64,000 nucleotides of DNA from an uncultured Candidatus Saccharibacteria bacterium (GTDB lineage Bacteria > Patescibacteriota > UBA1384 > CAILIB01 > JAUSJZ01): NCBI GenBank assembly GCA_964421635.1, contig CAYQWZ010000003.1, forward strand, positions 1,712 through 65,711, read 5' to 3'. The translations under genes were made by a program, and so were the position numbers. How positions within the stretch are numbered: position 1 is the first letter of the stretch; every line of letters starts with the position of its first letter. Positions 8,623 to 33,721 of this stretch are shown in pieces. The notes below the pieces were generated by a model. The model was given only the letters and a program-made list of their open reading frames with translations, was not told the origin of the DNA and ran no database searches.

Positions 8623-8745
8623 AAAAAATATTTAATTACTGAATCAATTGAAGCATGTTTAAAAAATTGAAGAAAGTATAATTTTTTGTGTGTCAAAAAA
8701 TGCGATATACTAATAGCGGCTACTAGCCAAGAGAAGGAGGCTGCA

Positions 8746-11381: not shown

Positions 11382-12389
11382 TTAGCTTTGCGGGTTTGAA
11401 TATTTTCGCACCAAGTACTTTTTTTGAACAGTGAAGCTGCCCCAACCAAGTAACATAATAATAATTCCACTAAAGACTAAAGCGAAGGTGACATCTGGGA
11501 AGATGCGGAAAGTTAGCCAAATTAGATAAACAGTTAAATAGATTGAGGAAACCGCATAGACCCACTTTTGACCCTGTCGAACTCCTAAATACATCATGCC
11601 AAGCGCCAACAGCGGAAAGACCATAGAGTATAGCGCACTACCATAGACGAAAGAGAAAAACCCTCCGAGCACAGTAATTGAGCCGAAAAACTGAAGGATT
11701 GAACCGAAACGAGGCCATCCTTTATGCATTTTAGAAGAGAAATAATTTCCGACAGTCATCACAATTGCGCCATGGAAAATGACCTCGTAAGTTATAAGTG
11801 TTTGGTTGAGGTTGATATTTTGATTAAGTAAAGTTGTAATAACACCTAGTAAATACAGCGCCCATGCAGTGCCTACTACCAAATAGACCTCTGTTTTTCG
11901 CAGAAACAACATTGGCAAATATATTAGGGACATTAAAGTTGCCAATACAGCCTGCATGCTTAAAGCTTCTATATCGACGCCCATTTCGTAGAATAAGATA
12001 TTCAAGCCAAGAGGCAGGGCAAAGATTGCAATAATATGGATGGCGTTGGAAATCTTAACATTGGTATTTCTATTCTCTAACAAAACAGCCGTGATAAAAG
12101 CAATAACTCCGGTGCCTAAAGTTACCAATACTCTCAGAAAAGAACCTAGAGCCTCCCAGTTCTCGCCGATAACGACAGATATTCCAATAGCAATTAAAAT
12201 AGCGCCAATATAAAAAAACGCTTCTGTAATTTTATTAGAGGAGGATTTATCTTTTACTTCTTCAAGGCCGGACATTTCTGCTACTGAATTATCTGTGGAG
12301 AAAGAAGAAAGAGAAGCTAAATCGCTACTCGTAATTGTGCCCTCACTCAAACCTCTTTTTATCTCTTGCAGTAAATAGTTTTTATCCAT
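11382..12389 (-). CDS. Hypothetical polytopic membrane protein (335 aa)
   Basis: At least 8 hydrophobic helices following a soluble N-terminal segment. Confidence 0.5.
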   Translation of the reverse strand: MDKNYLLQEIKRGLSEGTITSSDLASLSSFSTDNSVAEMSGLEEVKDKSSSNKITEAFFYIGAILIAIGISVVIGENWEALGSFLRVLVTLGTGVIAFITAVLLENRNTNVKISNAIHIIAIFALPLGLNILFYEMGVDIEALSMQAVLATLMSLIYLPMLFLRKTEVYLVVGTAWALYLLGVITTLLNQNINLNQTLITYEVIFHGAIVMTVGNYFSSKMHKGWPRFGSILQFFGSITVLGGFFSFVYGSALYSMVFPLLALGMMYLGVRQGQKWVYAVSSIYLTVYLIWLTFRIFPDVTFALVFSGIIIMLLGWGSFTVQKKYLVRKYSNPQS

Positions 12390-14794: not shown

Positions 14795-15166
14795 GTGTCT
14801 AAGAAACGAGTTGTGCTGGCCGCCTTCGGCGCGGTCGTCCTCCTGGTGGTGTGCGCCGTACTTGCTTCGCAACTGATCGATAATGGTCATAAGCTGAGGC
14901 AAGTCCAGTATGTGCCCCTGCCCGGGGTAGCGTACAAGTACTCCACGTTTCATAAGGAAGAGCCGATACGGCTGAGTTACAGCGACAGAACGATCATTCT
15001 GTCAGTTCGCCGAAAGGACTTCCTACCACTTCCGGCTAGTCGAATCTGGTCGAAAGAACAGGTCATGAAACCGGGGTGGACGTACTTCACCGTCGTGTGG
15101 AACCACCAAGACAAATCATTTCAACGATTTGATATCGAGGTGGAACCGCTCGAGCAAGACCCGTGA
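14795..15166 (+). CDS. Small GC-rich membrane-anchored hypothetical protein (124 aa, GTG start)
   Basis: Strong SD AGGAGG at 8-nt spacing, N-terminal TM helix VVLAAFGAVVLLVVCAVLA, strong terminator immediately after the stop. GC content is clearly above the local background. Confidence 0.5.
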   Translation: MSKKRVVLAAFGAVVLLVVCAVLASQLIDNGHKLRQVQYVPLPGVAYKYSTFHKEEPIRLSYSDRTIILSVRRKDFLPLPASRIWSKEQVMKPGWTYFTVVWNHQDKSFQRFDIEVEPLEQDP

Positions 15167-15199
15167 GCGGCCGCGTTGTACGCGGCCGCTTTTCTTTTA
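15167..15199 (+). terminator. Strong intrinsic terminator (GCGGCCGCG-ttgta-CGCGGCCGC followed by ttttctttt)
   Basis: Read directly. It overlaps the stop codon of the convergent minus-strand gene ending at 15197. Confidence 0.7.
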
Positions 15200-17377
15200 C
15201 CAAATATTCCAGATGTCGTCGATATAGTCTAAAGAGTAGTCTATAACTGCTACAAAAGTGTCATACATAAAATCAAGTGGATCCATTGAGATATAGTCGA
15301 GTGGCTCATTAAAGTATTCCTTTTCAGGGCTAGGTTTATATAAGTAGTCTATGTTGGTAGCCGGGTCACTATAAACCACAGGGTCTGGTTCGAGATTAAA
15401 GAAATCTGTTAGAAATGGTTCTTCATATGTTGGTGCATATTCCGGTAATTCTGTTATTTCTTGAAGATCAAAAGCAGTTATCTCTTCAGTAAAAATATTT
15501 TCATCTGGACTCCAATCATTTATTTCGGTAAACCATTTATAATCATCTCCTACTGGTTTAAATGTCATTTCTGGCTCGGACACTATCTCGCTGTATTCAT
15601 CTTCAAACACCGAGCTGGTTTCAGTTTCCGGAATGCTTGTTGTTGGTTCTGAATTTGTACTTTGAGTTGCAGAGGTTCCTTGTTCGTTGCCACTCTCTTC
15701 ACTTTGATCTTCAGATTCTGATTTTGAATCGGTATTTTCAGCTGTCGACATAGTAGTTGCATCTGTTTTACTAGGAGGATAATTTTCAAATTCATCGGCT
15801 AAGGCAATGAAGTCATTGTCTGTATGATTGATTTTAGCAATCTGTTTTACTACCACACCCCAGCGAGGCAGGTCCTTTAATTCTGACGAGGTTAAATTAG
15901 ATGTGTTTAAATCTAATTCGATATCTTTAACATTGCCGTAATTAACATAAAAGGTCGCCAGAGCTCCTCCACCCGTCATTTCTTCAAATTCTCTGTTTTC
16001 GGCTCCTTCTTCTAAAGACATTAGGGCCCACGGTTCGTGGTTATTGCTACCATAACCTACATCATTCCAAGGAATAGAAGCTCTATAAACAGCGAACTTA
16101 GAAACTGGAGCGTCTTCGACGCTTATTCCCTCCCCGATTTCTCCAAGTTTAGGAAAATAGTCTTTGATTGGCAGAACAACCCGATATCCCTCTTTTTCCG
16201 ATCCTTCTATAACAGAATTAGAGGCAAAAAAGTCCCAGCCACTAGCTAATAAATTACCGTGATAGCCAGTCGGGCACCATTGACCAAAGTAGTAAGAATA
16301 GTTACCATCCATTCCCAGAAGCGCCAAGTTAGTATCGGTAGAACCCTCCTTACTCTCGTACTGTCCGTTTCCATCTTTACGATTGTATCTAACCCAGGTC
16401 TCATCACCGTGGTACCCATCAGCTCCTGAAACAGAAATTTCGTAAGGACCTATCGGTTTAGCAATTTCAGCCAACCACCAATAAGGGTGTCCATCTGTGT
16501 CGGTAAAGTCATGAATTTTGTCTGGGGGGATTGGATTTTTTTCATCTCCTTTACCTTCGACAATGCTTACTTTGGCATTAAGAGGGCCTTTAAACTTCTT
16601 TAACCCAGCTTTTTCGTCTATTATCCAAATATCAGACAGGCTAGTTTTGTGAAAAATCTCGTCGGTTGGATGAATATAACCAGCTAAGGGAATATCGGTT
16701 ACTATAATATTTTTGCCCTCGTGTTTATAGTCGATTAAAGCCTCTACTATGTCAGTAGTACTTCTAATACAACCAGCTGTGAAATTGATAAGGTTGTCAT
16801 CACCTGTGCTGTGAATCCCTATATGTCGACAATTGTTTTTTTCTGAATCTGTCTCAAGGCCGCAAAGCGAACTACCTTCGTCTACGGGTGTCCCTTCTAG
16901 ATCGATAAAGAACGGTCCAAAGGAGCCCTTTCTTGCTATTCCGTCGTTATAGGGGATAAATGTGCCATTGTGATTGGTTCCAGGGTTTCCATTTTCGTCT
17001 ACAGCATCTTGGCGATTGGTCCAAGCCTGTCCCATTTTGTACACACCAAGAGGGGTCATTCCTGTGAGGGATTCTTCGTTTGTAAAATAAGATTCTTCAC
17101 CAATATTTTCAAAGGTTGCGTTGGCTAATACAGCAGGAGCATTAATTATGACTACTCCATTTTCATTATAGGCAGTTAGTGTATGTTTAGGATTGCTTTT
17201 GTTTACATCTACCACAACCACCTCAATGTTATAATCAATATTTTCACAAACAGAGGAATCAAAAACATCGGCTGATGGTCTGACTAGTACATACTTAAAT
17301 AAAATAAATACACAGAGAGCTATTACGACACCCAAAACAGAGTAAAGTAACAGCCTCGAATTAATCCCTCTTTTCAT
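15197..17377 (-). CDS. Secreted/membrane-anchored protein with an L,D-transpeptidase (YkuD)-like catalytic domain and an acidic S/E/T-rich region
   Basis: N-terminal TM helix LLLYSVLGVVIALCVFILF. Catalytic-like motif HIGIHSTGDDNLINFTAGCIRS matches the H...(S/T)xGC(I/V)R pattern of YkuD domains. Low-complexity acidic stretch in the C-terminal half. Confidence 0.55.
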   Translation of the reverse strand: MKRGINSRLLLYSVLGVVIALCVFILFKYVLVRPSADVFDSSVCENIDYNIEVVVVDVNKSNPKHTLTAYNENGVVIINAPAVLANATFENIGEESYFTNEESLTGMTPLGVYKMGQAWTNRQDAVDENGNPGTNHNGTFIPYNDGIARKGSFGPFFIDLEGTPVDEGSSLCGLETDSEKNNCRHIGIHSTGDDNLINFTAGCIRSTTDIVEALIDYKHEGKNIIVTDIPLAGYIHPTDEIFHKTSLSDIWIIDEKAGLKKFKGPLNAKVSIVEGKGDEKNPIPPDKIHDFTDTDGHPYWWLAEIAKPIGPYEISVSGADGYHGDETWVRYNRKDGNGQYESKEGSTDTNLALLGMDGNYSYYFGQWCPTGYHGNLLASGWDFFASNSVIEGSEKEGYRVVLPIKDYFPKLGEIGEGISVEDAPVSKFAVYRASIPWNDVGYGSNNHEPWALMSLEEGAENREFEEMTGGGALATFYVNYGNVKDIELDLNTSNLTSSELKDLPRWGVVVKQIAKINHTDNDFIALADEFENYPPSKTDATTMSTAENTDSKSESEDQSEESGNEQGTSATQSTNSEPTTSIPETETSSVFEDEYSEIVSEPEMTFKPVGDDYKWFTEINDWSPDENIFTEEITAFDLQEITELPEYAPTYEEPFLTDFFNLEPDPVVYSDPATNIDYLYKPSPEKEYFNEPLDYISMDPLDFMYDTFVAVIDYSLDYIDDIWNIW

Positions 17378-17431: not shown

Positions 17432-20400
17432 TTACCATGCAATATGGATTACATCCCAGAAGTCAGGGGAGGTGCAGATGCCGTAATTCTTCGGATCACC
17501 AGTAGCGTTTGAGTTACAGGCTCCTGAACGATAGCGCAAATTGAGAGCGTAAATTTGGTCAGCGTATTGGCTGTCTTCTTGATATAGGTCATGATTTTGT
17601 ACAGAAGTTTCGATTCCCTGAACCTTATTGGCGTCATCGGCCGACTCGTTAATGCGGTGAATTAATACTTGAGTAGGATAAAAATCGGAAGTGTAGTATT
17701 CAGCCCCGCGCTCTTCTCCCATAAAAAGGTCAGTTACCAAATTAATCACCTTGCCGCGCGCCGCCTCTTTGAATCCGTGGAGTTTTTGCACTTCATTTGT
17801 CGGATCAAATTCGCCGAAATAGGTACCCTTTAATTTACCAATATCATTCAGCGTCTCGGCCGCTGGCCACTGAGTGTACGGCACATTGCCCGTGCTCGGG
17901 TCGAAAGGTGGGGAGAACTCTCCCACCTTACCCACAAAAGGATAATAGCCGTCGGCGGTGGCTTTGGTAGTTATTCTAGTTTTGCCAAAGCCAAAGATTG
18001 TGACTAACACAAAGATGGCTAAGCTGACGAAGAACATTGGGCCGGTGCCAATTATTAAGGCGGTTAAAACTAAACTTAGTGCACCCGTAATTGTGCCTGG
18101 TGGTAAACCGATAGCGGTTTCAATTTTAGCAATCTCTTTGCCAAAAATTAAGTCTACTACATAAATTCCTAGCTCAATAGCCGCGTTAACCATTTGCGTT
18201 TTGAGCATGGCTATCTGTTCAGCACTCTGTTTTAATTTTACGGCTTGACTGTATGAATCGTAAGTTTTGTAGAAATTGTATGAAAGCTGGTAGGCATGCG
18301 CCAGTTTACCAGCTTGAATTCCCAGAATTTGTTCACCAAAGTAGAATGCTCGACCAAGCAGCCAGTTGGTATCGTAAAGCTCTGATAATCCTTTTACACC
18401 TACTCCTGAAATTGAGAAGGATTGATCGTTGCCGTTAAGCGCAAAGCCAAACACACCGGCCAAGGTGCCATCAACTAAGCCTAGGTCTTTAAATAGGGCG
18501 GAGCCGAACAGATCGTCTTCAAAACCAGAGAGACGGACTAATCCTTGTTCCGTTAGAAGCTCATTAATATTAGCGCTGTTGCCCTGAATCATTTCAATAG
18601 TGGCCTTAATGGTTTGCTGTTCTGTCAGCCAGCCCAACCCTTGACTGTCTAAATCACTGCGGAACTGCTTGGCCAAAACATTGGAGCTAATATAGGCAAT
18701 AGCGTTTGTTCTCTCTTCAGGCGTTCCTTCGAATAAAATTCGAGATAAGCCAGGCGCTACTAATCCTTTTTGATCGAGTAGCTTCGATAAACCAAAGTCC
18801 ATAGAGGCGTAGCCGAACTCTTTGCCAATGTAATCCCAAGAAGTTTGGGCGACCATTTGAGTGCTCTTGGTGGCGGCAGCGCGGGAGCTATCTGTCTGTA
18901 CAGCCGCTTTTATGCTGTCTAGGGTGGCTTGGTCTAGTCGCTCGTCAGCGGTGTCGTAGCTGGCATCGTTATTTGTTTGTGCCACTTCAGAGTCTGGTTC
19001 TTCAACCACATTCTCATTAGCTGTTTCGGCGTCACCACCTTCAAAGTTTTGTTGTAGCTCGTTTTCGGTGTCAGTGCGTTTATTATCTAAACTTAGCTCA
19101 GCGCCAGCCGCCACCGCCTGCAACACTAGCTGCTCTACTTCATTAGCTAATCCTTCTTCCTCGGTTAGGGCGGGAGCATGGCTGCTGGTTTGCAAAACAT
19201 TGCGAACTCTATTAATTTCACCATCGACATCGACGCCATCTTCGCGTGCTTCTGTAATAGATCTATTGGCGGTGCTTGCGAAGGATACATAACTGTCTTT
19301 AGTAGACAGAGCCTCAATATTTAAATCGGCGATAGCCATAACGGCGTTGATAGGAACTTGGAAGAACGGCCAAACTTCGCCTCCAATTTGTTGCTGAATG
19401 TACTGGCCAGCGATATCTCTAAACTCGCTTAAGGCGCCTACCATAGCTGCAGTAGGATTAACTCCTGCTAACTCGAAGTGACCTGAATCGCGATTATATA
19501 AAGCGCCAAACAGCACTCGTTGCATTACTCTCTTGGCATTAATGCTACGGTCATAATCATTAGTGTTAGTATCTGACATATTGATACCGAAAGCGCGGCC
19601 AGCTAATAATCGGACTCCTTGGTCGAATAGAATTTCATCTGCCTGTTTTGGTTTAGCAATGAGGTCGGCCATGGTGCCCGCTTCAAATCCTAAAGATTTA
19701 TCAATATTGAAGCTGAAGGCCTCAGACATAATTTTATAAACCCGAGCTAAACTGGCTGAGTCATACTCAGACTGTTTAAAGAAATCGATGAGAAAATTAC
19801 GATTGCTGCTGTTAGAAATTAAACCATCAAAAATTGGATCCTCAACACCTAGTCTTTGGAGTATGGCTGCAAACGCCTCGCCACCAAACTCTGTGGCTCC
19901 CTGCTCTCCAGCCATAGATACAAGCTGAGCGGTACTGATTTTTCCTTCAATCCACTTTCGAGTTGGCCCGTTATTCTCTTCATCTAAAATGCCTAGTCGG
20001 CGGTCAATGCCGTTCAGTCTAATTTCGTAGTAGTTATTTGATAAGCTTCCACCGAAGGCAGCGTCAATACTGCTGTTGATTAATCCGTCGTACTGATGAG
20101 CTAGAGCAAAATAATCATCTAGTAGATAGAAAATTCCTCGGTCAGCGCCTTCAGATTCAACAAAAATCTCTCGTGCTTCAAGATAAGATAACCTCATAGA
20201 AGTGGTCATCTCGTACATCTCTGTTTCAATGTCGTTCATCTTTTTGGTAATAGCTTTTGCTTCATCAGGAACAGGAATACTAAAAGCAGCCATTATTTTC
20301 TTCTGCCAGTCTCTCTTTTCAAGATCGTTCATAGAACCGGAGCCTTTCAACATCTCTTCTCTGGTGCCCTTAAATTCGCCTGTTTGTAATCCTAATATCT

Positions 20401-23400
20401 TTTCAATTCTGGCCTGCCCCATGCTCTCTACCGGATTATCTGTTAAGGTGAATCCTTTTGGCAGATCAAGTTCAATGCCCAGTTTGCCTAAAGTGGCGCT
20501 GATTATTGCCTGCTGCCGGTTCTCATCGCGCTCCGCGTCTGTGTTACCGTCAGGATAAATTACAGAATTGAAAAAATCACTTGGCAGCTCTAAGGTTTGC
20601 TCTAACTTACGACCACCAACACCCACCAAAGTTTTAACAGGATCACCCAAAATAAAGTCAGCGATATCGTCGGCCGTTAGCCAGTCAGGAATTTTGACAC
20701 CTAGCTTCTGAGCCAGTGAGCTAATGGTGCGAGCGGTAATATGCTCGCGACCCTTTTCGATTAGGCTTTGTCGGTCTGTTTCTCCGCCATCATTTCGAGA
20801 CGAGCCAACAGCGAAGAATAAATTATCGGCAGTCTGGTCGCCTTCGTAGAAAAGATAGAGTGCCTCTTTTGGTAAATCTAGGGTGTCAGCTAATTTTTGA
20901 ATTCCCAAATGCACCAAAATGTTATCTATATTGCCTCCAGCTAAAGCGCCTTGTGCCGAACTGATCAGCAATTTGTCAGAGCCAAAAAGTATTCGTAAAG
21001 GATTCAGAGGGACATCTTCTAGTGAACCAACATTCGTATTTAAACTCTCCAAACTAATCTCGCTTGGAATGTGCGAGCTGTAAGCAACAGAATCGCCCTC
21101 CATAATTTCCATCACCGCTCGTTCGATATCTGAGGCGGCGCCTAATATCTGATTGACGGAATCGAAACTGTCTGAATCCTCAACAAAATCAATAATGCTA
21201 AAGAGGTCATCTTTAACATCGCGCACAGTGTAGCTGCTCTCTAGGTTGGTTAAATTGTCACCTAGCTCTACCACGCCCGCAATAGTGCGTTTGCTGTTGT
21301 TAATTATGTTTTGTACCTGACCCTGTACTCCATCTGGGAAATCGCTGACGCGCCGCTCAATGATGCGCAAGGAGTCATAAATTTTTTGATAGCGATTAAC
21401 ATAGAAAAAGATATCAGAGGCTAATTCAGTGTCTTCCAGCTGTTCGTATTCTGGGCTGTCTTGTACTTTTTCTATTAAAAGGCGGCGACCGATGCGTCTA
21501 AATTCGTGGGCTGGTTTATCACTCAAAAAGACATCGGCGTAGAAGTTGTCTTTTGGATTAGAGGCTACGAAATTTGTGTCACCGCTAACATTTGTAACAC
21601 TTGTTCTAAACTCTTTTTGGTCGTGGCTAGGTAGAGTTTCAGACAGGTACCAAACGCCAGCTATTTTGAAAGCGCTCTCGGCGTTGCTGCCCCCAATAAT
21701 ATCGAACATCGTGCCAGCCGGAAAGCCGAAAACTCGGTCGCGTTGCTGTGAAGTACCATCAGGGTTTTGACCATAGTCGCGGTAGTCATGCAGTGTTTGT
21801 AAAGAGTCATTCAAAATATTTAAAGATGCATTATACAGGGCTATTTTTTTCTGCTCTTCTTGAGTGAGATTGTTGGCAGTGATTATTGAGCCGTTGCCAG
21901 GGACATTTAAGCTAGCGATTAATCCTTCAATGGTGCCAGTCAAAGTTTCTAAAGAAGAGATTTCGGACGCTGCATTGCTTAAGAAACTTGTGCGAGCATC
22001 TTTGTTAGAAGGATTATATGTAATCATGCCTTCAAGCGGATCATAGGTTGGCCCAGGATTTTCTGCTTGGTAGGCCTTAGCCTTAAGCCGTTCAGCTATT
22101 TGTACAACACTGTTAGCAATATCTCCTTGTCCGGCATCCTGTAAATATTTTTTTAGAATAAACAGTGAGCCTGACTGGCCAGCCCCTCCTTCGTTCTCTC
22201 TATTGGTCAGCTGCTGCACTATAAATAGAGGGCTGGCTGGAGTATAATCTTCAGCTGCATTTGCAGATTCGACATGGTAGCGACCTAAATTAGCATCCCA
22301 GACTTTTTGGCCGGCCGCCTGTTTGAACTCAGCCACATTGCCAGAGTTAATAAAGCGCAAAGTAGTATTGGCTGGTAGTCGCAGTCGCTCATCAATTATG
22401 ATGGCATTTTGAGCGGCAAAAACAGTATTGTATCGAGCCTCTCCTATAGCGGCTTTGACTTCATTAATATCATTTGAAGCGAAGGATCTCTCTGGTACGG
22501 GCAAGCGCTCTTCAATGTATCCCCATCCTAAATGCTCCTTAAACCCATTCACTGAGTCGTAGTTATTTAGGGCGTAACTTTTGATGCCCAAGAGGTCTGC
22601 TAGCCGCTGTTTTCCAATGTTCGTAAGTAAATCGTTAGGACTATCTCCTTCAGGCAGTCTATCGAGCCCAATCTGTTTAGCTACAAACTGACGGCCAGTG
22701 TACTCTTCAATATCGGCCAAAGAGTTGGCGTTGCGAATTGCTTCAGGGTCAACATTAAGAGCTCCTCCCAAAACAATAGCACCAAAATCTTTAATAGTGT
22801 CGCCAAAATTAAACTGTGAAATATCTTGGCCGTCGAGCAGAGTTCCCAGCAGCTGGCCACCGACAAACTTGGCTAAATCTTCTGTACTCAAGCTGTCGAG
22901 GGTGCGGCCATCAAAATTGAATTCACCTAAAATTTCTTCTGCATCTAAAAGCTCAAAAATGCTATTAAAAGATAGATCTTGCAGCATTTCATGAATAGCC
23001 AACTCGGGTAGAGGTTCGGCGGCAATTCCGTCATCTGATTGCCAAGCGACTTTAATGTTTATTGGTTTTTGGAACTTATAGCTGTTAGAGCTGCTGAATA
23101 TTCCGGTTTTTCGAATGCGGGTGGTGACTCGAATGCGATCAATCTCTGAAATATCAATAGCCTGTGAAACGGCGTGCGAGCCTTCATTAAACTTAATTGG
23201 CACATCTTGGCCGTTGATTTTTTGAGTTGAAAAATCGCGGCTAGTTAAATCTACGAAGTGAGGGCTACGGGTAGTCTCTAAGCTTTTATCCCATTTACCG
23301 TTACCGTTGGTGTCAATGTATTCTTCGCCTTCATTCTGCTCGTAAATTCCGTCACCGTCATCATCTAAAATTGGTTCTGCTCGGTTCTGCTGCTCCTTGC

Positions 23401-24316
23401 CTTTCTCAATAAACTGAGTTAATCTTTCAACTTTCAAGTATTCTCGGCCGGCACCTCCATCGCTGCGTGGTTTGAGTAGGTAGTCAAGGGCTAAAATTAC
23501 CCGTACATCAACGCGCGGAGGGTCGCAGTATTGGTCTTTATCGCGGGCACCATTAATGAATTCGTTGTCTTCGCTAGCGTTCCAATTAAGACAATCCCCG
23601 TTGTTCTCACCTGTAATAGCCACTAAATCTCGGCTGTGCTCAAATACCAAGCGCCGCTCATAAGTAGTTAGAGGATTCAGCCGTTCTTGTAGATCAGAAT
23701 TAATTGTATAGAAGTTTGGTAGGTATTTTGTTAATACTTCAGCCGTCAGATCTTCTTCAAGAGAAGATGAAATATTATTGCTCTCATCATTATTAATATT
23801 TTCTAGTTTTTGAGCATCTTCTCTTGGAACATAAGCATAAGTTCGGCTATTGTCGTCTTGGCTAACACTTTCATCTGGGATAAAAGATTGATTTTCAATC
23901 TTATCAATAACCTCTCGTTTATTCAGAAAAATAACAACATCATTGTCGTAAGCTGTTTCAAAACTGTTGTGTTCATCAATGACAAGGGTTAGGGCATAGC
24001 TATCAATGTCGTCGGGAAATCCTTCTCCAGGTGTGTAGACAAGGTCGTGGTCGTTGTTTGTAATAAAAGATCGACTCAATGGCGCTTCTAAATCATTTGC
24101 TCTTGGTATATCGCCTAAATCAGAAGGATTGGAACTTTCTTGATTCAAAAGCTCAATATCTTCCCCACTTCCTTCAAAGTCGCTTTCATCTGATGAGTTG
24201 GGTAATTCATCAGGATCAATTTGGGCATAAACAGTCAGAGTACTTAAAGGTAAAAATAAAGATAGTGAAGCAATTATATTTAAGCAGATGAATTGTTTAA
24301 ATAATCCTTTTTTCAT
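17432..24316 (-). CDS. Giant surface/envelope protein (2294 aa) with N-terminal signal peptide and C-terminal TM segments
   Basis: Uninterrupted 6.9-kb ORF. Signal peptide MKKGLFKQFICLNIIASLSLFLPLSTLTVYAQ. Two hydrophobic helices near the C-terminus (LSLVLTALIIGTGPMFFVSLAIFVLVTIFGFG). The start overlaps the upstream gene by 4 nt. Confidence 0.7.
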   Translation of the reverse strand: MKKGLFKQFICLNIIASLSLFLPLSTLTVYAQIDPDELPNSSDESDFEGSGEDIELLNQESSNPSDLGDIPRANDLEAPLSRSFITNNDHDLVYTPGEGFPDDIDSYALTLVIDEHNSFETAYDNDVVIFLNKREVIDKIENQSFIPDESVSQDDNSRTYAYVPREDAQKLENINNDESNNISSSLEEDLTAEVLTKYLPNFYTINSDLQERLNPLTTYERRLVFEHSRDLVAITGENNGDCLNWNASEDNEFINGARDKDQYCDPPRVDVRVILALDYLLKPRSDGGAGREYLKVERLTQFIEKGKEQQNRAEPILDDDGDGIYEQNEGEEYIDTNGNGKWDKSLETTRSPHFVDLTSRDFSTQKINGQDVPIKFNEGSHAVSQAIDISEIDRIRVTTRIRKTGIFSSSNSYKFQKPINIKVAWQSDDGIAAEPLPELAIHEMLQDLSFNSIFELLDAEEILGEFNFDGRTLDSLSTEDLAKFVGGQLLGTLLDGQDISQFNFGDTIKDFGAIVLGGALNVDPEAIRNANSLADIEEYTGRQFVAKQIGLDRLPEGDSPNDLLTNIGKQRLADLLGIKSYALNNYDSVNGFKEHLGWGYIEERLPVPERSFASNDINEVKAAIGEARYNTVFAAQNAIIIDERLRLPANTTLRFINSGNVAEFKQAAGQKVWDANLGRYHVESANAAEDYTPASPLFIVQQLTNRENEGGAGQSGSLFILKKYLQDAGQGDIANSVVQIAERLKAKAYQAENPGPTYDPLEGMITYNPSNKDARTSFLSNAASEISSLETLTGTIEGLIASLNVPGNGSIITANNLTQEEQKKIALYNASLNILNDSLQTLHDYRDYGQNPDGTSQQRDRVFGFPAGTMFDIIGGSNAESAFKIAGVWYLSETLPSHDQKEFRTSVTNVSGDTNFVASNPKDNFYADVFLSDKPAHEFRRIGRRLLIEKVQDSPEYEQLEDTELASDIFFYVNRYQKIYDSLRIIERRVSDFPDGVQGQVQNIINNSKRTIAGVVELGDNLTNLESSYTVRDVKDDLFSIIDFVEDSDSFDSVNQILGAASDIERAVMEIMEGDSVAYSSHIPSEISLESLNTNVGSLEDVPLNPLRILFGSDKLLISSAQGALAGGNIDNILVHLGIQKLADTLDLPKEALYLFYEGDQTADNLFFAVGSSRNDGGETDRQSLIEKGREHITARTISSLAQKLGVKIPDWLTADDIADFILGDPVKTLVGVGGRKLEQTLELPSDFFNSVIYPDGNTDAERDENRQQAIISATLGKLGIELDLPKGFTLTDNPVESMGQARIEKILGLQTGEFKGTREEMLKGSGSMNDLEKRDWQKKIMAAFSIPVPDEAKAITKKMNDIETEMYEMTTSMRLSYLEAREIFVESEGADRGIFYLLDDYFALAHQYDGLINSSIDAAFGGSLSNNYYEIRLNGIDRRLGILDEENNGPTRKWIEGKISTAQLVSMAGEQGATEFGGEAFAAILQRLGVEDPIFDGLISNSSNRNFLIDFFKQSEYDSASLARVYKIMSEAFSFNIDKSLGFEAGTMADLIAKPKQADEILFDQGVRLLAGRAFGINMSDTNTNDYDRSINAKRVMQRVLFGALYNRDSGHFELAGVNPTAAMVGALSEFRDIAGQYIQQQIGGEVWPFFQVPINAVMAIADLNIEALSTKDSYVSFASTANRSITEAREDGVDVDGEINRVRNVLQTSSHAPALTEEEGLANEVEQLVLQAVAAGAELSLDNKRTDTENELQQNFEGGDAETANENVVEEPDSEVAQTNNDASYDTADERLDQATLDSIKAAVQTDSSRAAATKSTQMVAQTSWDYIGKEFGYASMDFGLSKLLDQKGLVAPGLSRILFEGTPEERTNAIAYISSNVLAKQFRSDLDSQGLGWLTEQQTIKATIEMIQGNSANINELLTEQGLVRLSGFEDDLFGSALFKDLGLVDGTLAGVFGFALNGNDQSFSISGVGVKGLSELYDTNWLLGRAFYFGEQILGIQAGKLAHAYQLSYNFYKTYDSYSQAVKLKQSAEQIAMLKTQMVNAAIELGIYVVDLIFGKEIAKIETAIGLPPGTITGALSLVLTALIIGTGPMFFVSLAIFVLVTIFGFGKTRITTKATADGYYPFVGKVGEFSPPFDPSTGNVPYTQWPAAETLNDIGKLKGTYFGEFDPTNEVQKLHGFKEAARGKVINLVTDLFMGEERGAEYYTSDFYPTQVLIHRINESADDANKVQGIETSVQNHDLYQEDSQYADQIYALNLRYRSGACNSNATGDPKNYGICTSPDFWDVIHIAW

Positions 24317-25986
24317 TCTGTTAGTTGTGGCCTAGATACCTTTAGGATTTGATTTATTTGGCGATTGTCTTGGAATAATATAGCCTCATCTTCACTGCGA
24401 GGGCCGCCATCTGAACTGCAGAAATAGACTCTTTTTTGAGAATCAGAGAAGACAAACAGACCGTAGTGTGTTTCGTTGTCAACTTCTTTGGAGGTGATAA
24501 TAATGTCGCCATCCTCTAATGATTCGGCGTCGAAATCTTCGCCAACCTTGCTTGGTTTTAAGATTGTGCTAAAGGTTTTTGGTAAATCTACAGCATTAGG
24601 GCTGAGACACAAAATACAGTTACTGTCGTTGCCGCGAATCAGATATGTAATAAATCCGCTGGGGTCGCAGCCGCGTTTACCGCCCACCACATTGCTGCCG
24701 TCGCGAAGAGGCAAGCTTGTACTTTTAGGATTATCATTAGTACTGCCGACCCAATTTCCACTATCTCCAACCGCAGATATTGCCCTGCTGGCTAGCTCTT
24801 GCGGAGTTTTGACTGTCACGCCGAGAGTGAGATTAATTAATTCATCGAGATTTTGAAATAGCTCTTTTAGTTTATCTTCAATATCTTCTGTGCCGCCCAC
24901 AATCTCTTGAGCTAAAGTTTTGGCAGTGGCTAAAGGTCCCGCCACTATGGCTTCAGAGTTTGGTTTGCCAGCAATCTCTTCTTCAACCTTGTCTAAAAAC
25001 TCAATAATGCCACTTTCTGTCAGCTCCTTAGCCGAAGTAATCTGTCGAATCTCTTCATCACCAGCTAAGGTAGCTAGCCGTTCAATGGCTTCTTTGACAG
25101 TAGGATTAGACAGGTCTGCAGGCTGAGATAAAGTACCGCCGCGTGATCCGCCGCCAATTAAACTGGCGATGCCAGCCCCAAGACCTATTAATAAAATTAC
25201 AATTAATATTGGCCCAATATTGGCCACAATGAAAGGTATAACGACTGAGGCAACGCGAGCGCCCAATTGGGCGGCAATTTTAGCACCGGCCTGAGCTGCC
25301 TTGCCAGCCGCTCGCGCACCTGTTTTAACAGCAGAGCCAGCGGCTTTTGTCCCTGCCTTCACTCCAGATTTTGCTGCTTTTTCAGCTGCCCCTTTAGCCG
25401 CTTGACCACTGGCTTGCCCAGCTTTGCTTGCTGCCTGTTTACCAATCTGACTACCAGTTTTCATTGTTTGCTTGCCGGCTTTGCCGCCATATTCGGTAAC
25501 CGTTCTGGTGTCAGGAGTTTTGCTAGCTCTGGTTTTAGGGTCAATTTGTCGACTTTGTGGGTCTTCGCCTCTTTTATCAGCTGGCCTCTCAGCTTTCTGC
25601 TCTCGGGCTTTCTCTAAACTATCTTGTTCTTGTTGTCTGTTTTGGTCTGACTGCGACTGTTCAGCCCGTTCCTGCTGTTGCTCAAGCTGCTCCGACTCAT
25701 CTTCTTCTGAATATTGAGCGTTATTTAATTCTTCCAACTCCTCGTCACTAAGCTCCAAATCTTCATCAAAATCTTCTTCGCGATCACCAGTCGGCCCAGC
25801 ATCGCGACCAGCCCCAGACAGCGGAGCACCTTTCTGTCTTAACAGCGCCGCCAAATTAACAACATTTGAGGCCCCCGGTTTGGAAGGAACATTTCGACGA
25901 CGGATTATCTCAGCGCGCAAAGACCGACGGCTGCGCCCCATCCTTCTATTATTGTTATTTGGTTTTTTGTTAGGTGTATTGGCCAT
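24313..25986 (-). CDS. Membrane-anchored protein with a C-terminal NlpC/P60-like cysteine peptidase (cell-wall hydrolase) domain
   Basis: Basic N-terminus, acidic region, Ala/Lys-rich repeats, one TM helix (VVIPFIVANIGPILIVILLIGLGAGIASLIG), then GCDPSGFITYLI ... GDIIITSKEVDNETHYGLFVF, which resembles the Cys/His motifs of NlpC/P60 domains. Confidence 0.5.
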   Translation of the reverse strand: MANTPNKKPNNNNRRMGRSRRSLRAEIIRRRNVPSKPGASNVVNLAALLRQKGAPLSGAGRDAGPTGDREEDFDEDLELSDEELEELNNAQYSEEDESEQLEQQQERAEQSQSDQNRQQEQDSLEKAREQKAERPADKRGEDPQSRQIDPKTRASKTPDTRTVTEYGGKAGKQTMKTGSQIGKQAASKAGQASGQAAKGAAEKAAKSGVKAGTKAAGSAVKTGARAAGKAAQAGAKIAAQLGARVASVVIPFIVANIGPILIVILLIGLGAGIASLIGGGSRGGTLSQPADLSNPTVKEAIERLATLAGDEEIRQITSAKELTESGIIEFLDKVEEEIAGKPNSEAIVAGPLATAKTLAQEIVGGTEDIEDKLKELFQNLDELINLTLGVTVKTPQELASRAISAVGDSGNWVGSTNDNPKSTSLPLRDGSNVVGGKRGCDPSGFITYLIRGNDSNCILCLSPNAVDLPKTFSTILKPSKVGEDFDAESLEDGDIIITSKEVDNETHYGLFVFSDSQKRVYFCSSDGGPRSEDEAILFQDNRQINQILKVSRPQLTE

Positions 25987-27264
25987 TCAAGGAGCTAATT
26001 TTAGAGGAAAACTATAAAGAGTATTGTTGCTGACAAAATGCAATGTCGATTCATCGTTCGTCAAATAAATATGCTCGATATTATTGGTAATAGTTGGTGA
26101 GGATTCATACAGCTGAACCTCTTTTGAACTGACATTAAACTTAATTAATTGCGAGTTGCCGTTATCGTCAATGGCCTGAACTGTTAGGAAGTTGCTGTCG
26201 TCGTGCCAAACGAAAGCGCCAGATTTTGCCAAAGTGAACAGCTCGTCGCTTTCTCCTGTATCTGGATTAATTAGCACCAAGACAGGCAAAGCGGTGTCGT
26301 TCTCTTCTGCTACCAAGTAGGCGCCATTTGGGCTAAAACTGGCTTTAGATACACTCTTAGCGTTAGCGGAGTAGAGCTGATCAATAGCTAAATCGTAAAT
26401 AAAGAGATTGCCTTTGCTGTATAAAGGATTATCAATAACGGCGATTTTTGTGCCCGCCTTTGACCAAACAAACTCAGGAGCAGATAATTTGTCTAAAACA
26501 GCCAGAATGTTTTTATTATTCATACCGGTGTCAGCAGTACCAAAAACTGGTTCGTTGTCGCGGAACTCAACAAAACCTAGACGGTTGTGAGTGGCGTCAT
26601 ATTTAATATCTAGCACATTAGGATCAGCTAAAAGTTTAAACTCAGAGTTAACGAAATCTGGTTTAGTGAAGTCAAAAATGTACCAAATATTTTTGCTATC
26701 TTTGGTAATCACTGCTTTGTGCGAAGTAATCCATTCTAAATCGGAATTTCTTTTAAAGATTGGGTCTGAGATGGCTACTTTTTCGCCCGTGTCTAAGTTA
26801 TAACGAACAAGCGTGGTTAAATCTCGGCCTAAATAGTAAAGGGTATTAGTCGCTCGGTCGTAAGAAAGATAGGTGGCTTGACCAACCACATCTGATTCAG
26901 GATTAGAAGCGATAGTGACTGTTGGGGTAATTTCCACCGTTCTGCCTCGGGGAGCTTCAATAACCTCTTTATGGTTTACTTCTTGACCCGACATAATGCT
27001 AATGGTGTGTTTACCCGGAATGGTGACGAATTTAAAAGTATCCTCATCAATTTGTGCCAGACTAACTTCTTGCCCATCAATTAAAATTTCAACTTCCTGA
27101 TACTGTAAATTTATTAAAATGGTGCTGCGATTTAGAATGAATCTATTGACAGCTAGTGCCAGCAAAAAAACCGCCAGCAAAGTAGACAAAATTACATACT
27201 GCCGATGCTTGTACTCTTTCGAGGTGATATGTTTAATTTTTTTGATGACTTTTTTAAATGGCAT
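25987..27264 (-). CDS. Membrane-anchored protein with PEGA-like and TolB-like beta-propeller-like regions
   Basis: N-terminal TM helix; segment VEILIDGQEVSLA...GKHTISI is PEGA-like; repetitive beta-strand-rich C-terminal region with SPNGAYLV-type blades. Confidence 0.45.
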   Translation of the reverse strand: MPFKKVIKKIKHITSKEYKHRQYVILSTLLAVFLLALAVNRFILNRSTILINLQYQEVEILIDGQEVSLAQIDEDTFKFVTIPGKHTISIMSGQEVNHKEVIEAPRGRTVEITPTVTIASNPESDVVGQATYLSYDRATNTLYYLGRDLTTLVRYNLDTGEKVAISDPIFKRNSDLEWITSHKAVITKDSKNIWYIFDFTKPDFVNSEFKLLADPNVLDIKYDATHNRLGFVEFRDNEPVFGTADTGMNNKNILAVLDKLSAPEFVWSKAGTKIAVIDNPLYSKGNLFIYDLAIDQLYSANAKSVSKASFSPNGAYLVAEENDTALPVLVLINPDTGESDELFTLAKSGAFVWHDDSNFLTVQAIDDNGNSQLIKFNVSSKEVQLYESSPTITNNIEHIYLTNDESTLHFVSNNTLYSFPLKLAP

Positions 27265-27265: not shown

Positions 27266-27679
27266 TTATTTTTCTACAACTTCAAAACTAATTGACTCAA
27301 CTGGTGCGTTTATTTTTTGTAACCAGTTTTTTGCGTCTACTTTTATACTATCCTGTTGCTTAAAATATTGTGAGGGTATTTCTAACCTTAAACTATTTAA
27401 ATCAACGAAATATAGGCTGTAATTGTCTGCAAAGTGGGGTAAGAAATCTAGCCACGGGTTATTTTTAATTTTTTCAGAGTAAGGCTGTGCTATCTCGTCA
27501 TTATCACTAGGTGCTGATTCAGCAACATCTGGTTGATTATCTCCAAAGTCAGTTATCTCAGTATCTGATTTTGTTGTTGGTGCTTTAATAGCTTTGTTAT
27601 TTGATGAGATCATAAAAAATCCAATTACGATTAAGACAATAATAAGTACGACAATTATTATTTTGGTTCTATTATCCAT
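27266..27679 (-). CDS. Small membrane-anchored hypothetical protein (137 aa)
   Basis: N-terminal TM helix IIIVVLIIVLIVIGFFMI; overlaps the upstream gene by 22 nt, suggesting translational coupling. Confidence 0.45.
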   Translation of the reverse strand: MDNRTKIIIVVLIIVLIVIGFFMISSNNKAIKAPTTKSDTEITDFGDNQPDVAESAPSDNDEIAQPYSEKIKNNPWLDFLPHFADNYSLYFVDLNSLRLEIPSQYFKQQDSIKVDAKNWLQKINAPVESISFEVVEK

Positions 27680-29130
27680 AATCCTTTTTTATTATTACTA
27701 ACGATGTTAGTTTTTGCTGCTGTGATATTTCTTTTGTAAGAATCAGCTAGAAAAATAATGTTACGGCTGTTATCTATGGCAAATAAAGTTACATAATGTC
27801 CACCACTAGTAAAATCTCCACTTTTCATTAAGGCGATGACTGGTTTGCCTTGGGCTAGGGCGCTAAGTGATGCTTGCCAACCAGCACTGGTTACTTTTAA
27901 TCCAAACAAACTTCCGACGCTGTTAAGCATTGCGCCACTTGTGCCGCTACCACAAAGTCGCCACCTACCTCTGGTTGATAGTTCAGCAGTAACTCCTGGG
28001 TCAAATTTTCCACCAAATTCTTGATTAATAGAGCTATTAAAGCTGTTTGTTGAAAGAACTCCTCTTTCAACATAATAAGCGATGGCATTAGACAGTGATG
28101 TTGGGCCACAGCCAGAAGAAGAAATATTGGCACCACAACTTACAATGGATGCGTTTGTATTACCTAATTGACCTGCGCTGTTTACACCTTTATAAGGCGT
28201 ATTTGCCCAAGGGCCTTGGTGCTGAGTAAAGCGTGGAAAGTCCGCAAAGGTTCTATAAAAACCATCAGCTTCTTTTGTTGTTCCTCCTTTGTAAACTTTT
28301 CCATTAAAGGTTACGCTATCTGGTATTACAATAGAAGAAGGATTTTGCAGAGGTCTATTTGTAAAGTTAATATTACCTCCAATTTGAGTTAAATCACCAG
28401 TAAAAGCATTTCCTTGATAAACTGTGACGCCTGAAACCTCACAAGCGTATAGGTCGTTATCTACCCCTTGGCAATTCATTCGACTGCGAGCTGCCTGTTC
28501 ATCGCGCGTGCCAGTAAAGGCTAAATCGAGTCTCTTTGTCATATCCTTGCCAGTCGACAACATCGTTTGGTAATAGCGTTCGTTAATATTAGTAGCAGTA
28601 CCAAAGGTATCAATAACAGGAGCTGGTTGGTCGGTGTAACCGGGAATGTGTAGCCAGTAAGCAGTGCCTGTCTGTACTTGTGCACTGTCGCTGGTTTTTA
28701 TTGGCCACTTAGCCCCGTTTTTCCACATTGTTGGGTGATTAACTGCAATGCCACCAACTGCGTAATTATTATTGGAGAAAGCTGAGACTAGCTCGTAGTT
28801 AGCATCGTCTTGATATTTCTTCCGATCTTCATTAGAGAGGCTACAATGATTGATAATTTGTTGAGTAGTTTTATTGCGGTAGGCATAATTTACACCAGAG
28901 AAGGTTCCGCAACCACCCTCTATTTTGTCTGAAACCTTCCACCCAGGAGTATAAAAAGTGACAAAAACTGTTTCATCAGATGAGATAGAACGAAGACCGG
29001 CGCTACTAAATATTCCTCCCGTGTTTAAAAATCTTAGCCACCCAAAAGGGCTGAAAATAAGACCAACAAATATACCGGCAATAGCTATTATTACCATAAA
29101 GACGATAATATATGATAAATATTTGTTCAT
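27658..29130 (-). CDS. Membrane-anchored protein with a C-terminal peptidase C39-like (papain-fold) domain
   Basis: N-terminal TM helix. C-terminal SCGANISSSGCGPTSLSNAIAYY ... GGHYVTLFAIDN resembles the CGP(A/T)SL and downstream His motifs of Peptidase_C39-like domains. Confidence 0.45.
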   Translation of the reverse strand: MNKYLSYIIVFMVIIAIAGIFVGLIFSPFGWLRFLNTGGIFSSAGLRSISSDETVFVTFYTPGWKVSDKIEGGCGTFSGVNYAYRNKTTQQIINHCSLSNEDRKKYQDDANYELVSAFSNNNYAVGGIAVNHPTMWKNGAKWPIKTSDSAQVQTGTAYWLHIPGYTDQPAPVIDTFGTATNINERYYQTMLSTGKDMTKRLDLAFTGTRDEQAARSRMNCQGVDNDLYACEVSGVTVYQGNAFTGDLTQIGGNINFTNRPLQNPSSIVIPDSVTFNGKVYKGGTTKEADGFYRTFADFPRFTQHQGPWANTPYKGVNSAGQLGNTNASIVSCGANISSSGCGPTSLSNAIAYYVERGVLSTNSFNSSINQEFGGKFDPGVTAELSTRGRWRLCGSGTSGAMLNSVGSLFGLKVTSAGWQASLSALAQGKPVIALMKSGDFTSGGHYVTLFAIDNSRNIIFLADSYKRNITAAKTNIVSNNKKGLWIIEPK

Positions 29131-32593: not shown

Positions 32594-33011
32594 CTAGTTC
32601 TGAATAACCATGACTATCTACCACTTCGGCCACATTAGCTAAATCTTTTTTAGAATATATTTTTTTAGCAACCTTCTTATTACTTTTCTTTTGCGCTTTA
32701 TCGGCTCTGATAATTGGCTTACCTGAGGATTGATACTGTGACCATCCTCGCTCTTTGGGAGTAATAATGTATTTAAACAATGAGGATAAAAACTTAGGCA
32801 TTGGCTCACCCTGAACTTTAATAGCTGCTAGGGCGAAAGCAAAAATACCAATTGCGCCCGCAATAACCATGCCTAAAAATCCGCCAATTTTAATTAGCGC
32901 CAGATAGGCAATTAACCCACCCAAAGCCAAATAACCAAATTGGATAAGCGTAAACTTACCTACAATTCGATCCTCCATATCAAGATTTTGGGGGACTTTA
33001 AACTGTGGCAT
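32583..33011 (-). CDS. PrgI/VirB3-like small membrane protein (2 TM helices)
   Basis: 142 aa with two adjacent hydrophobic helices (FGYLALGGLIAYLALIKIGGFLGMVIAGAIGIFAFALAAI). It sits immediately upstream of the VirB4-like genes and overlaps the next gene by 11 nt. Confidence 0.5.
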   Translation of the reverse strand: MPQFKVPQNLDMEDRIVGKFTLIQFGYLALGGLIAYLALIKIGGFLGMVIAGAIGIFAFALAAIKVQGEPMPKFLSSLFKYIITPKERGWSQYQSSGKPIIRADKAQKKSNKKVAKKIYSKKDLANVAEVVDSHGYSELDDE

Positions 33012-33502: not shown

Positions 33503-33721
33503 ATGTCAGGAACTAACAATCAACCAGCTGAAGCTTGGGTGGCTGAGCGCATTAGGGCTTTTCGAGCTGGTGAGTTGCCAGTCATAGATGAACCTGAGAA
33601 CGAAGGTCTGGCAGGCTGGTATCGAAATGTCGAAGAACCAGCCGCGAGGGCTATCGCTGAAATGGAGGAGGTCGAAGCTCAGGCGACGATCGAAGTCGAG
33701 AATCTGCGTTTCGTGGGCTGA
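33503..33721 (+). CDS. Small GC-rich acidic hypothetical protein (~72 aa)
   Basis: AAGGAGG SD 6 nt upstream of the second ATG; intrinsic terminator overlaps the stop codon. Confidence 0.35.
   Translation: MSGTNNQPAEAWVAERIRAFRAGELPVIDEPENEGLAGWYRNVEEPAARAIAEMEEVEAQATIEVENLRFVG

Follow-up and report, generated by a model that had tools for sequence, protein, structure and literature searches.

A giant protein encoded beside VirB4 as a candidate structural component of the Patescibacteria type IV secretion system

Type IV secretion systems (T4SS) of Patescibacteria are of a mating-pair formation (MPF) type, MPF-FATA-like, with TrsD and PrgI encoded beside VirB4; they are found close to dnaA/rpmH/rnpA and usually without a relaxase (PMC12102498). 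A locus of this kind is found in a 64,000-nucleotide stretch of DNA from an uncultured Candidatus Saccharibacteria bacterium (assembly GCA_964421635.1, contig CAYQWZ010000003.1, positions 1,712 to 65,711), the whole of which is referred to here as the window. Its striking feature is a giant gene whose product, on balance, appears to be a dedicated structural component of the monoderm, MPF-FATA-like T4SS of Patescibacteria, in the form of an extracytoplasmic, membrane-anchored and looped scaffold. All support for this role is computational.

The genes from position 33011 down to 15197 are all encoded on the minus strand and are separated by overlaps or short gaps. From first to last, the operon and its end contain the following features:

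32583-33011, minus strand: PrgI/VirB3-like protein, first gene of the T4SS operon (PF12666, E 3.5e-9).
31622-32593, minus strand: TrsD/TraC-N-like protein, the separately encoded N-terminal part of VirB4 (Pfam/NCBIfam scans).
29799-31619, minus strand: VirB4 ATPase of the CD1110 family (NF045971, E 1.2e-114).
Between the VirB4 ATPase and the 490-amino-acid (aa) protein, minus strand: 223-aa single-pass protein.
27658-29130, minus strand: 490-aa membrane-anchored protein with a Peptidase_C39_2 domain (Pfam).
Between the 490-aa and 425-aa proteins, minus strand: 137-aa single-pass protein.
25987-27264, minus strand: 425-aa single-pass protein with faint beta-propeller matches, a conserved partner in three of the further loci described below (L002, L005 and L023).
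24313-25986, minus strand: 557-aa protein with an NlpC/P60-like Cys...His layout, whose stop overlaps the giant start (ATGA).
17432-24316, minus strand: giant gene, second-to-last in the operon.
15197-17377, minus strand: 726-aa membrane-anchored protein with a YkuD (L,D-transpeptidase) domain, last operon gene (Pfam).
15165-15191, no strand: 12-bp GC-rich palindrome right after the last operon gene (pattern match only).

The giant gene is six genes downstream of VirB4, within the 20 coding sequences of virB4 that served as the criterion in an earlier survey, and the operon agrees with the Patescibacteria T4SS described there (PMC12102498). An earlier reading of this DNA from its letters (the original prediction) had reported that the giant gene's start overlaps the upstream gene by 4 nt, and the overlap is indeed present as ATGA. 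It had also called that upstream gene NlpC/P60-like, for which the Cys...His layout is present although Pfam does not detect the domain. This 557-aa protein has a basic/acidic low-complexity N-terminal half and a transmembrane (TM) segment at about residues 237-267, and its C-terminal region, undetected by Pfam, contains K-R-G-C-(D/N)-x-S-G-F followed by G-D-I-(I/L)...H. Orthologues of it were found in L002 and L005.

Upstream of PrgI, a 150-aa open reading frame (ORF) at 33506-33958 (minus strand) overlaps the same-strand tRNA-Leu(TAA) gene at 33758-33846 (minus strand) and is almost certainly spurious, so the operon starts with PrgI at 33011. Just upstream of PrgI are a 107-aa coiled-coil-like ORF and a 74-aa acidic ORF on the opposite strand. 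Pilin genes were looked for upstream of PrgI in the window and were not found, no pilin-like gene was seen near the operon, and the window's larger ORFs include no pilin array. Neither VirD4 nor a relaxase turned up when these larger ORFs were scanned, and no VirB6-like polytopic protein was seen in the operon or among the larger ORFs of the 64 kb. At the other end, the palindrome at 15165-15191 likely marks the end of the operon as a bidirectional terminator. Its 12-bp stem (GAGCGGCCGCGT/ACGCGGCCGCTT) is perfect and includes two NotI-like GCGGCCGC sites; the palindrome is unusually GC-rich compared with the 42% GC genome and is located between the convergent ends of the T4SS operon and a plus-strand ORF ending at 15166. 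Downstream of the operon are rpmH, rnpA, yidD and yidC, and further on a T2SSE-type ATPase (5524-7050), dnaA, dnaN and recF; with these genes nearby, the T4SS operon is chromosomal and located beside the replication origin.

The giant gene is real and not an assembly artefact. Its single ORF, with exact coordinates and an ATG start, encodes 2,294 aa, and a stop-free run of that many codons at 43% GC has a chance of about e^-137. The protein is collinear with ten homologues of full or nearly full length that come from independent metagenomes, among them P0002 (64% identity over 100% of the query) and P0003 (40% over 100%), and a second public record carries the same 20.9-kb stretch. Both the single ORF and its integrity, for which an assembly chimera had been a worry, are therefore secure. 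The mature protein would be about 250 kDa with an isoelectric point of 4.4. Over its whole length no match was found in Pfam, NCBIfam or PHROG scans, and sequence and profile searches of the PDB with the family gave no significant match. The protein can be divided as follows:

Residues 1-31 (24224-24316, minus strand): signal peptide with n-region KK..K, h-region 9-27 and c-region TVYA|Q, cleavage predicted.
Residues 32-229 (23630-24223, minus strand): acidic, poorly conserved segment, about 21% D+E.
Residues 230-445 (22982-23629, minus strand): conserved N-core, the family signature.
Residues 379-397 (23126-23182, minus strand): H-x6-D motif (H381, D388) with the covarying contact positions R394 and V397.
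Residues 446-2062 (18131-22981, minus strand): long, mainly helical region (models of 525-675 and 1830-2070).
Residues 592-612 (22481-22543, minus strand): helix-loop motif copy 1.
Residues 1233-1246 (20579-20620, minus strand): LGLPxG motif copy 2.
Residues 1297-1315 (20372-20428, minus strand): LGLPxG motif copy 3.
Residues 2063-2076 (18089-18130, minus strand): motif copy 4 (AKIETAIGLPPGTI), running directly into the hairpin.
Residues 2075-2111 (17984-18094, minus strand): conserved hydrophobic hairpin (ITGALSLVLTALIIGTGPMFFVSLAIFVLVTIFGFG), two helices joined by GTGP.
Residues 2112-2133 (17918-17983, minus strand): post-hairpin segment KTRITTKA2119TAD2122GYYPFVGK, partner of the N-core.
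Residues 2134-2294 (17435-17917, minus strand): linker and small alpha/beta C-terminal domain.

The signal peptide that had been proposed is well formed, with MKKGLFKQ, a hydrophobic core at 9-27 and TVYA|Q, of which '(T/S/V)VYAQ' is kept in close homologues; cleavage is a prediction. Other subfamilies have a cytoplasmic N-terminal stretch and an uncleaved membrane anchor instead, and a hydrophobic N-terminal segment is present in 87 of 99 complete members. The N-core is marked by GENxGDC242...C264DPPRVD, GGAGREY, S-H381-AVSQAI-D388-ISEIDRIRV397TT and PINIKVAW425Q426S. Between the N-core and the hairpin, the middle region ranges from 1,271 to 2,747 aa in the family and accounts for nearly all differences in length (r=0.98 with total length). 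The models of 525-675 and 1830-2070 show helices with a predicted local distance difference test (pLDDT) of up to 95, and residues 720-1830 would presumably be helical as well. No tandem or internal repeats were detected by self-BLAST. An iterated hidden Markov model (HMM) did detect a dispersed helix-loop motif of about 22 residues, consensus EIxxNVGQAKIEQTLGLPxGSF, with four detectable copies in the window protein and five to eight in relatives.

Two hydrophobic helices near the C-terminus had been noted previously, and the stretch at 2075-2111 is modelled by AlphaFold as adjacent helices at 2075-2088 and 2093-2107. They are not at the very end, however, as about 185 residues follow. A hydrophobic stretch of about 42 residues before GYYP, followed by 111-212 residues, is found in 85/99 complete members. 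The hairpin and T-A-D2122-G-Y-Y-P are among the best conserved segments, the latter being nearly invariant. The small alpha/beta domain that follows (pLDDT 70-83) is marked by GEFD2171P, PTQVLIH, C2267...C2281 and the end F-W-D2288-V-I-H2291-I-A-W.

The most informative evidence on the architecture of the giant protein comes from covariation between its two ends. Position 397 of the N-core, nine residues after D388, is Val in the window protein, and the residue at GYYP-4, four positions before the GYYP motif, is A2119. Across the family, cysteine occurs at both positions in 59 members, at neither in 44, and at one alone in none (p ~4e-30). An alignment-free check by regular expression returned 37 with both, 31 with neither and one discordant. 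On a tree computed from another part of the protein, both positions switch jointly about five times and never singly; neighbour-joining (NJ) trees on such short alignments are noisy, so that these numbers of independent events are approximate. Position 394 and GYYP-1 (D2122) form a second pair, which is Cys/Cys in nine members, N-terminal only in none and C-terminal only in five, and is otherwise Asp/Asp or Arg/Lys with Asp.

Cysteine parity follows the same division. Where the pair 397/GYYP-4 is present, the cysteine count is odd in the N region of 53/59 members and in the post-hairpin region of 59/59; where it is absent, the count is even in both regions (44/44 and 44/44). Read from sequence, this pattern is characteristic of extracytoplasmic regions in which all cysteines are disulfide-bonded and one extra bond joins the two regions. 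Parity and covariation thus place both ends, indirectly, outside the cytoplasm. Because both ends are outside, the hydrophobic stretch must enter the membrane and return as a hairpin, and because the N-core sits against the post-hairpin segment, the 1,600-residue middle forms a closed loop. With the signal peptide, these data bear out the proposal that the protein is exported and membrane-anchored with its bulk extracytoplasmic. When modelled alone, both partner segments have low confidence (residues 136-197 of the first model, and protein residues 2110-2125 in the second, which are disordered), as would be expected of highly conserved segments that form a composite fold.

Further searches defined the family and its surroundings. 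An exhaustive HMMER search with the N-core profile among 1.84 billion proteins, in clusters at 50% identity, returned 205 clusters, 165 of them at E<=1e-10. Full-length members almost all have 1,300-3,282 aa, with the N-core placed 80-500 residues after the N-terminus in every case. Giant size is thus a trait of the whole family, to which the window protein conforms. Every carrier with a name belongs to Patescibacteria. When one genome for each GTDB species was scanned, 15 further loci were found, labelled Saccharibacteria, Berkelbacteria or 'Patescibacteria group', with homologous ORFs of 1,430-2,040 aa. With all operon proteins as tblastn queries, each locus whose upstream flank was long enough proved to have PrgI-TrsD-VirB4 1.3-6 kb ahead of the homologue, and the same is true of L002, L005 and L023. 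This synteny spans CAILIB01-type, Berkelbacteria, 'Saccharibacteria'-labelled and other Patescibacteria metagenome-assembled genomes. Conservation next to VirB4 had been suggested as a cross-genome check, and its persistence in 15 loci across several Patescibacteria lineages, wherever the flank suffices, confirms that the gene belongs to the T4SS-like operon.

The distance to VirB4 is steady while that to rpmH varies from about 40 bp to more than 7 kb or lies beyond the locus. Moreover, the wall enzymes between VirB4 and the giant gene are swapped for non-orthologous ones by lineage while the giant gene stays: these are C39-like and NlpC/P60-like in the window, Amidase_2 in L002, M23 in L023, VanY with a glucosaminidase in L009, and a weakly M15C-like protein in the 'Saccharibacteria'-labelled loci. 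In L022, a 141-aa gene (11383-11808) with a weak T4SS_pilin match (PF18895) is located directly downstream of the giant homologue P0024.

Two other features of these loci were observed. A beta-propeller-like partner of about 350-425 aa persists alongside the giant gene in L002, L005, L009, L015, L018-L020 and L023 as compared with the window. The TrsD-like part and the VirB4 ATPase form one ORF of 873-897 aa in six loci (L012, 5815-8433; L014, 5768-8431; L015, 2051-4741; L018, 1699-4371; L019, 239-2923; L020, 5252-7933), whereas in the window, L002, L005 and L023 they are two genes (323 + 606 aa) that overlap or abut. The VirB4 split is therefore lineage-specific.

Taken as a working model, the scaffold would be assembled in several steps. 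The protein would be exported by Sec through its N-terminal signal peptide, after which the C-terminal two-helix hairpin would insert in the cell's own membrane. The N-terminal part of about 2,040 residues and the C-terminal part of about 185 residues would stay outside, as cysteine parity and covariation indirectly suggest. The N-core (230-445) would then dock on the ATADGYYP segment and the C-terminal domain, a contact indicated by covariation, to give a composite base module at the membrane surface. The helical middle of about 1,600 residues, closed into a loop, would reach out across the wall and surface layers in the direction of the host and may serve as a wall-spanning scaffold or spacer of the T4SS.

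Several observations weigh against this model. No homology to any characterised T4SS component was detectable in Pfam, NCBIfam and PDB searches, and fold searches with the models gave nothing significant (best E 0.38, 1.2 and 0.59). The VirB4 synteny is partly confounded with proximity to oriC, as rpmH, rnpA, yidC, dciA, recF and dnaN also flank the genes. The post-hairpin flank is rich in K/R (KTRITTK), and the positive-inside rule alone suggests a cytoplasmic side for it. The window protein itself is without the inter-end cysteine pair (V397/A2119); for this protein we infer the end contact from the family-wide conservation of both segments. Finally, the corresponding place in the cultured model Southlakia apparently holds a gene of another build, SEML1_0007 (1,113 aa). 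As Southlakia exemplifies, the giant family is not universal among VirB4-bearing genomes, and given this difference the Southlakia essentiality data do not apply directly to the family.

The base module may also contain a metal site. The original prediction stated that the protein has no recognisable catalytic motif, which is too strong at the level of motifs, given the conserved S-H381-x6-D388 and the conserved C-terminal His2291. The window sequence G-S-H381-A-V-S-Q-A-I-D388 and the family consensus S-A-H-x-x-G-Q-A-x-D-I resemble the H-x6-D zinc motif of LAS/M15 enzymes. His is found 5-10 residues before the Asp in 80/103 members, and nearly all members end in H-(I/V)-x-(aromatic). A third zinc-ligand His was not found within the N-core, where the position after K-V-A-W is an invariant Gln; a conserved His is located four residues from the C-terminus. 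The Asp and this His tend to be kept or lost together: 81 members keep both, eight have lost both, six have the Asp only and four the His only (odds ratio 27, p 7e-6), and joint loss is seen in at least four places on the NJ tree.

In the 'Saccharibacteria'-labelled loci, both motifs also occur together, about 70 residues apart, at the C-terminus of the protein encoded immediately upstream of the giant homologue. This neighbour family of 445-520 aa (L018, 4563-5933; L020, 8076-9500; L019, 2935-4302; L015, 4731-6290) has S-x-H-x-c-G-x-A-I-D-I and D-H-I-H-(L/I)-G, plus conserved cysteines. These 'unsplit' neighbours give sub-threshold matches to Peptidase_M15_4 (E 0.015-0.06), and their sole PDB match among 177,635 sequences is the phage T5 M15C peptidase, at H66-x6-D73 (E 0.58). 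They probably represent a divergent group of M15C-type peptidases that serves the T4SS cluster specifically. Aligned by hhalign, the giant family and the unsplit neighbours share the first motif only, over 20-21 columns (E 7e-5 to 1.2e-4, probability 55-63%).

S-H-x6-D and the C-terminal His could form one LAS/M15-type, metal-dependent site in the base module and, with the other wall enzymes of the operon, make local openings in the peptidoglycan. Such a composite, LAS-like metal site is a tentative lead and not a finding. Against it, 15 members had no Pfam M15 match at E<=5, a composite profile of N-core and tail found no M15 structure in the PDB, and hhalign against a genuine VanY domain gave a probability of 0.4%. 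The N-module profile also found no significant match in the PDB. Further, about one member in three lacks the N-core His or has it in a shifted position, conservation does not extend to the Asp three residues ahead of the C-terminal His, and every cluster already encodes dedicated wall peptidases. An equivalence of the invariant K-V-A-W-Q with the third-ligand motif 'E-P-W-H' of VanY was rejected on the same hhalign probability of 0.4%. Since lineages without these residues keep the rest of the protein, any catalytic role would be secondary to the structural one.

An extended version of the scaffold model combines both aspects. In it, the protein would be a topologically closed 'hoop' whose N-core (H381, D388) and H2291, about 1,900 positions apart with a membrane hairpin between them, come together at the membrane surface to build one LAS-type metallopeptidase site, and the loop of 1,270-2,750 residues would be a wall-spanning conduit or length-setting spacer. 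We regard this version as doubtful. If true, it would mean that a monoderm T4SS reaches and opens the host envelope by means of a loop, and that a split-domain enzyme-scaffold exists which has no precedent among secretion systems.

The best surviving alternative to a structural scaffold is the one offered by the original prediction, a host-contact adhesin or fibre. Here the protein would be a filament whose distal part binds the host, and its link to the T4SS would be an adhesion like that in mating-pair formation, as with PrgB in enterococcal conjugation. An extracytoplasmic, very large, acidic and surface-anchored protein suits such a role, as does a middle region that is length-variable and poorly conserved, as expected of host-facing parts; the role is also vacant, as a 2025 survey found no PrgB-like adhesin in Patescibacteria. 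However, no adhesin, lectin or immunoglobulin-like domain, LPXTG motif or tandem repeat was found, the C-terminus reads ...DVIHIAW, and the modelled parts are helical and not beta-rich. The most conserved parts, the hairpin included, are membrane-proximal, and tying both ends to the membrane leaves no terminus free at the far end, as is more in keeping with a looped scaffold or stalk than with a fibre that has a distal tip. In addition, host adhesion of Saccharibacteria is attributed in the literature to type IV pili. The adhesin or filament role is therefore not borne out by these features and we consider it unlikely, while a loop tip that binds the host would be compatible with the scaffold model.

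A second alternative is that the protein stands in for VirB6, with its hairpin oligomerising into the membrane channel or platform of the T4SS where a VirB6/PrgH homologue was not found, and with its ectodomain extending the conduit. The lack of a polytopic VirB6-like protein in the operon or the 64 kb speaks for this, together with the reported scarcity or absence of VirB6 in some classes and a hairpin (LGLPPGT...GTGP...FGFG) that is far more conserved than a passive anchor needs; 'extended VirB6' proteins with large hydrophilic domains are known as well (PMC12857230). However, the hairpin has two hydrophobic helices and VirB6/TrbL/PrgH have five or more, and no Pfam or NCBIfam match supports the relationship. 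Moreover, L012, L014, L017 and L020 carry a 719-996-aa protein with 6-14 predicted TM segments upstream of PrgI, in addition to the giant homologue. A general replacement of VirB6 by the giant family is rejected by this coexistence in four loci, and a replacement in those lineages where VirB6 was not found seems very unlikely.

About equally improbable is a general role in envelope or cell-wall maintenance, as a wall or surface-layer organiser or a division-site factor that neighbours the T4SS only through a conserved origin-proximal block. In all lineages examined, rpmH, rnpA, yidD, yidC, dciA, recF, dnaN and dnaA are among the flanks, and the operon neighbours are wall enzymes (YkuD, C39-like, NlpC/P60-like, Amidase_2, M23 and VanY). 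Conversely, the giant gene shares the strand of PrgI-TrsD-VirB4 with gene overlaps and no terminator-like break between, and its distance to VirB4 is constant at 1.3-6 kb while the rpmH distance varies. All named carriers belong to a phylum with a widespread and distinct VirB4 clade, and wall enzymes are normal in T4SS clusters (VirB1-like) and are essential together with the T4SS in Southlakia.

A delivered weapon, in which the hairpin is a pore-forming or fusion-type element inserting in the host membrane or the whole protein is a large secreted T4SS effector or toxin, is highly improbable: both hairpin flanks are extracytoplasmic, the cleavable-looking signal peptide of the window subfamily leaves the hairpin as sole hydrophobic element, and effector delivery by the Patescibacteria T4SS has been proposed in the literature, but the signal peptide implies Sec export and not T4SS translocation, a hairpin leaving Sec would normally partition into the producer's membrane, other subfamilies bear an additional N-terminal membrane anchor, and the conserved C-terminal domain is no polymorphic toxin domain and is accompanied by no immunity-like small gene. 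A phage-like protein was rejected as there was no PHROG match. A VirB1-like enzyme of the SLT/CHAP/NlpC/M23 kind was also rejected, as no such match was found on the giant protein and these domains are on separate neighbouring genes.

Two further features of the window lie outside the T4SS operon. A tRNA-Ile with anticodon TAT (UAU) was called by ARAGORN at 40473-40549 (plus strand). The UAU anticodon is uncommon for reading AUA in bacteria, in which a modified CAU is usual. A 523-aa ORF at 8686-10257 (plus strand) contains two stretches matching Thy1 (ThyX, flavin-dependent thymidylate synthase). It is roughly double the normal length, possibly as a result of tandem duplication or fusion of ThyX.

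Earlier publications describe the Patescibacteria T4SS, including its position near the origin and the wall enzymes that accompany it (PMC12102498, PMC10633639, PMC12857230). The survey found few detectable VirB8, VirB6 scarce or absent in some classes, and no PrgB-like adhesin, and it makes no mention of the giant protein (PMC12102498). No description of the family was found in the searchable literature, in which searches for giant proteins in Patescibacteria gave nothing relevant, and public records give it no name. Neither a cultured carrier nor Tn-seq data for the family turned up in these searches. The giant protein would thus be a hitherto undescribed, very large part of a known secretion system, unusual in its closed-loop topology. 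In Southlakia, the one genetically tractable Patescibacterium, the T4SS cluster including its wall enzymes is essential for epibiotic growth (PMC10633639). The function of the Patescibacteria T4SS has been described as completely unknown (PMC10633639, PMC11665869), and the passage of any Gram-positive-type T4SS across the cell wall is still unexplained (PMC12857230). The list of known Patescibacteria T4SS components lacks major structural parts, and a conserved extracytoplasmic protein of 1,300-3,300 residues is an obvious candidate. The giant gene takes up about 1% of a sub-megabase genome, a share that speaks for an important role, and its product is a strong candidate for the T4SS part that crosses the cell wall towards the host.

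Among known systems, extended VirB6 proteins (the rickettsial RvhB6 paralogues, and SEML1_0011 and SEML1_0013 of Southlakia) resemble the giant protein as large T4SS membrane proteins with big hydrophilic domains that are partly helical repeats. They differ in having five or more TM helices against two, and a VirB6-like protein coexists with the giant family in several loci. CagY, the VirB10-like protein of the Helicobacter cag T4SS, and PrgB-type adhesins are very large proteins dedicated to T4SS that span or extend beyond the envelope. The giant protein has no sequence, repeat or domain similarity to CagY (tandem repeats, VirB10 domain) or PrgB (LPXTG anchor, adhesin domains).

LAS/M15 enzymes, including the phage T5 L-alanyl-D-glutamate peptidase (2mxz), VanY and VanX, share the H-x6-D within S-x-H-x-x-G-x-A-x-D-I and a His near the C-terminus. 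In the phage T5 enzyme, H66, D73 and H133 are the zinc ligands. The LAS/M15 enzymes differ in that no significant profile match connects them with the giant protein, whose putative site has its parts about 1,900 residues apart with a membrane hairpin between. We know of no site split in this way across a membrane hairpin in the LAS/M15 family.

VirB1-like hydrolases (PrgK of pCF10, TraG of pIP501 and CwlT of ICEBs1) are likewise encoded in T4SS operons near VirB4 and are membrane-anchored with an extracytoplasmic bulk; such hydrolases are associated with peptidoglycan remodelling (PMC12102498). PrgK, TraG and CwlT have 330-870 aa with recognisable SLT, CHAP or LytM domains, whereas the giant protein has none of these and is 3-7 times larger; they have an N-terminal anchor and the giant protein a C-terminal hairpin with its two ends joined. 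A scaffolding role is also attributed to proteins of the PrgK type. SEML1_0007 of Southlakia epibionticum ML1, compared by description only, is an essential 1,113-aa protein encoded directly downstream of VirB4, with a Hedgehog/DD-peptidase fold at 951-1105. It shares with the giant protein the position in the T4SS cluster, a large size, the absence of annotation by sequence and an M15-type metal-peptidase signature. With half the size of the giant protein, it has an uninterrupted peptidase fold at its C-terminus, and in 'Saccharibacteria'-labelled loci with the giant family a separate M15C-like protein of 440-520 aa precedes the giant gene. By analogy, anchored wall hydrolases of the PrgK/TraG/CwlT type and SEML1_0007 appear to be the nearest functional analogues of the giant protein.

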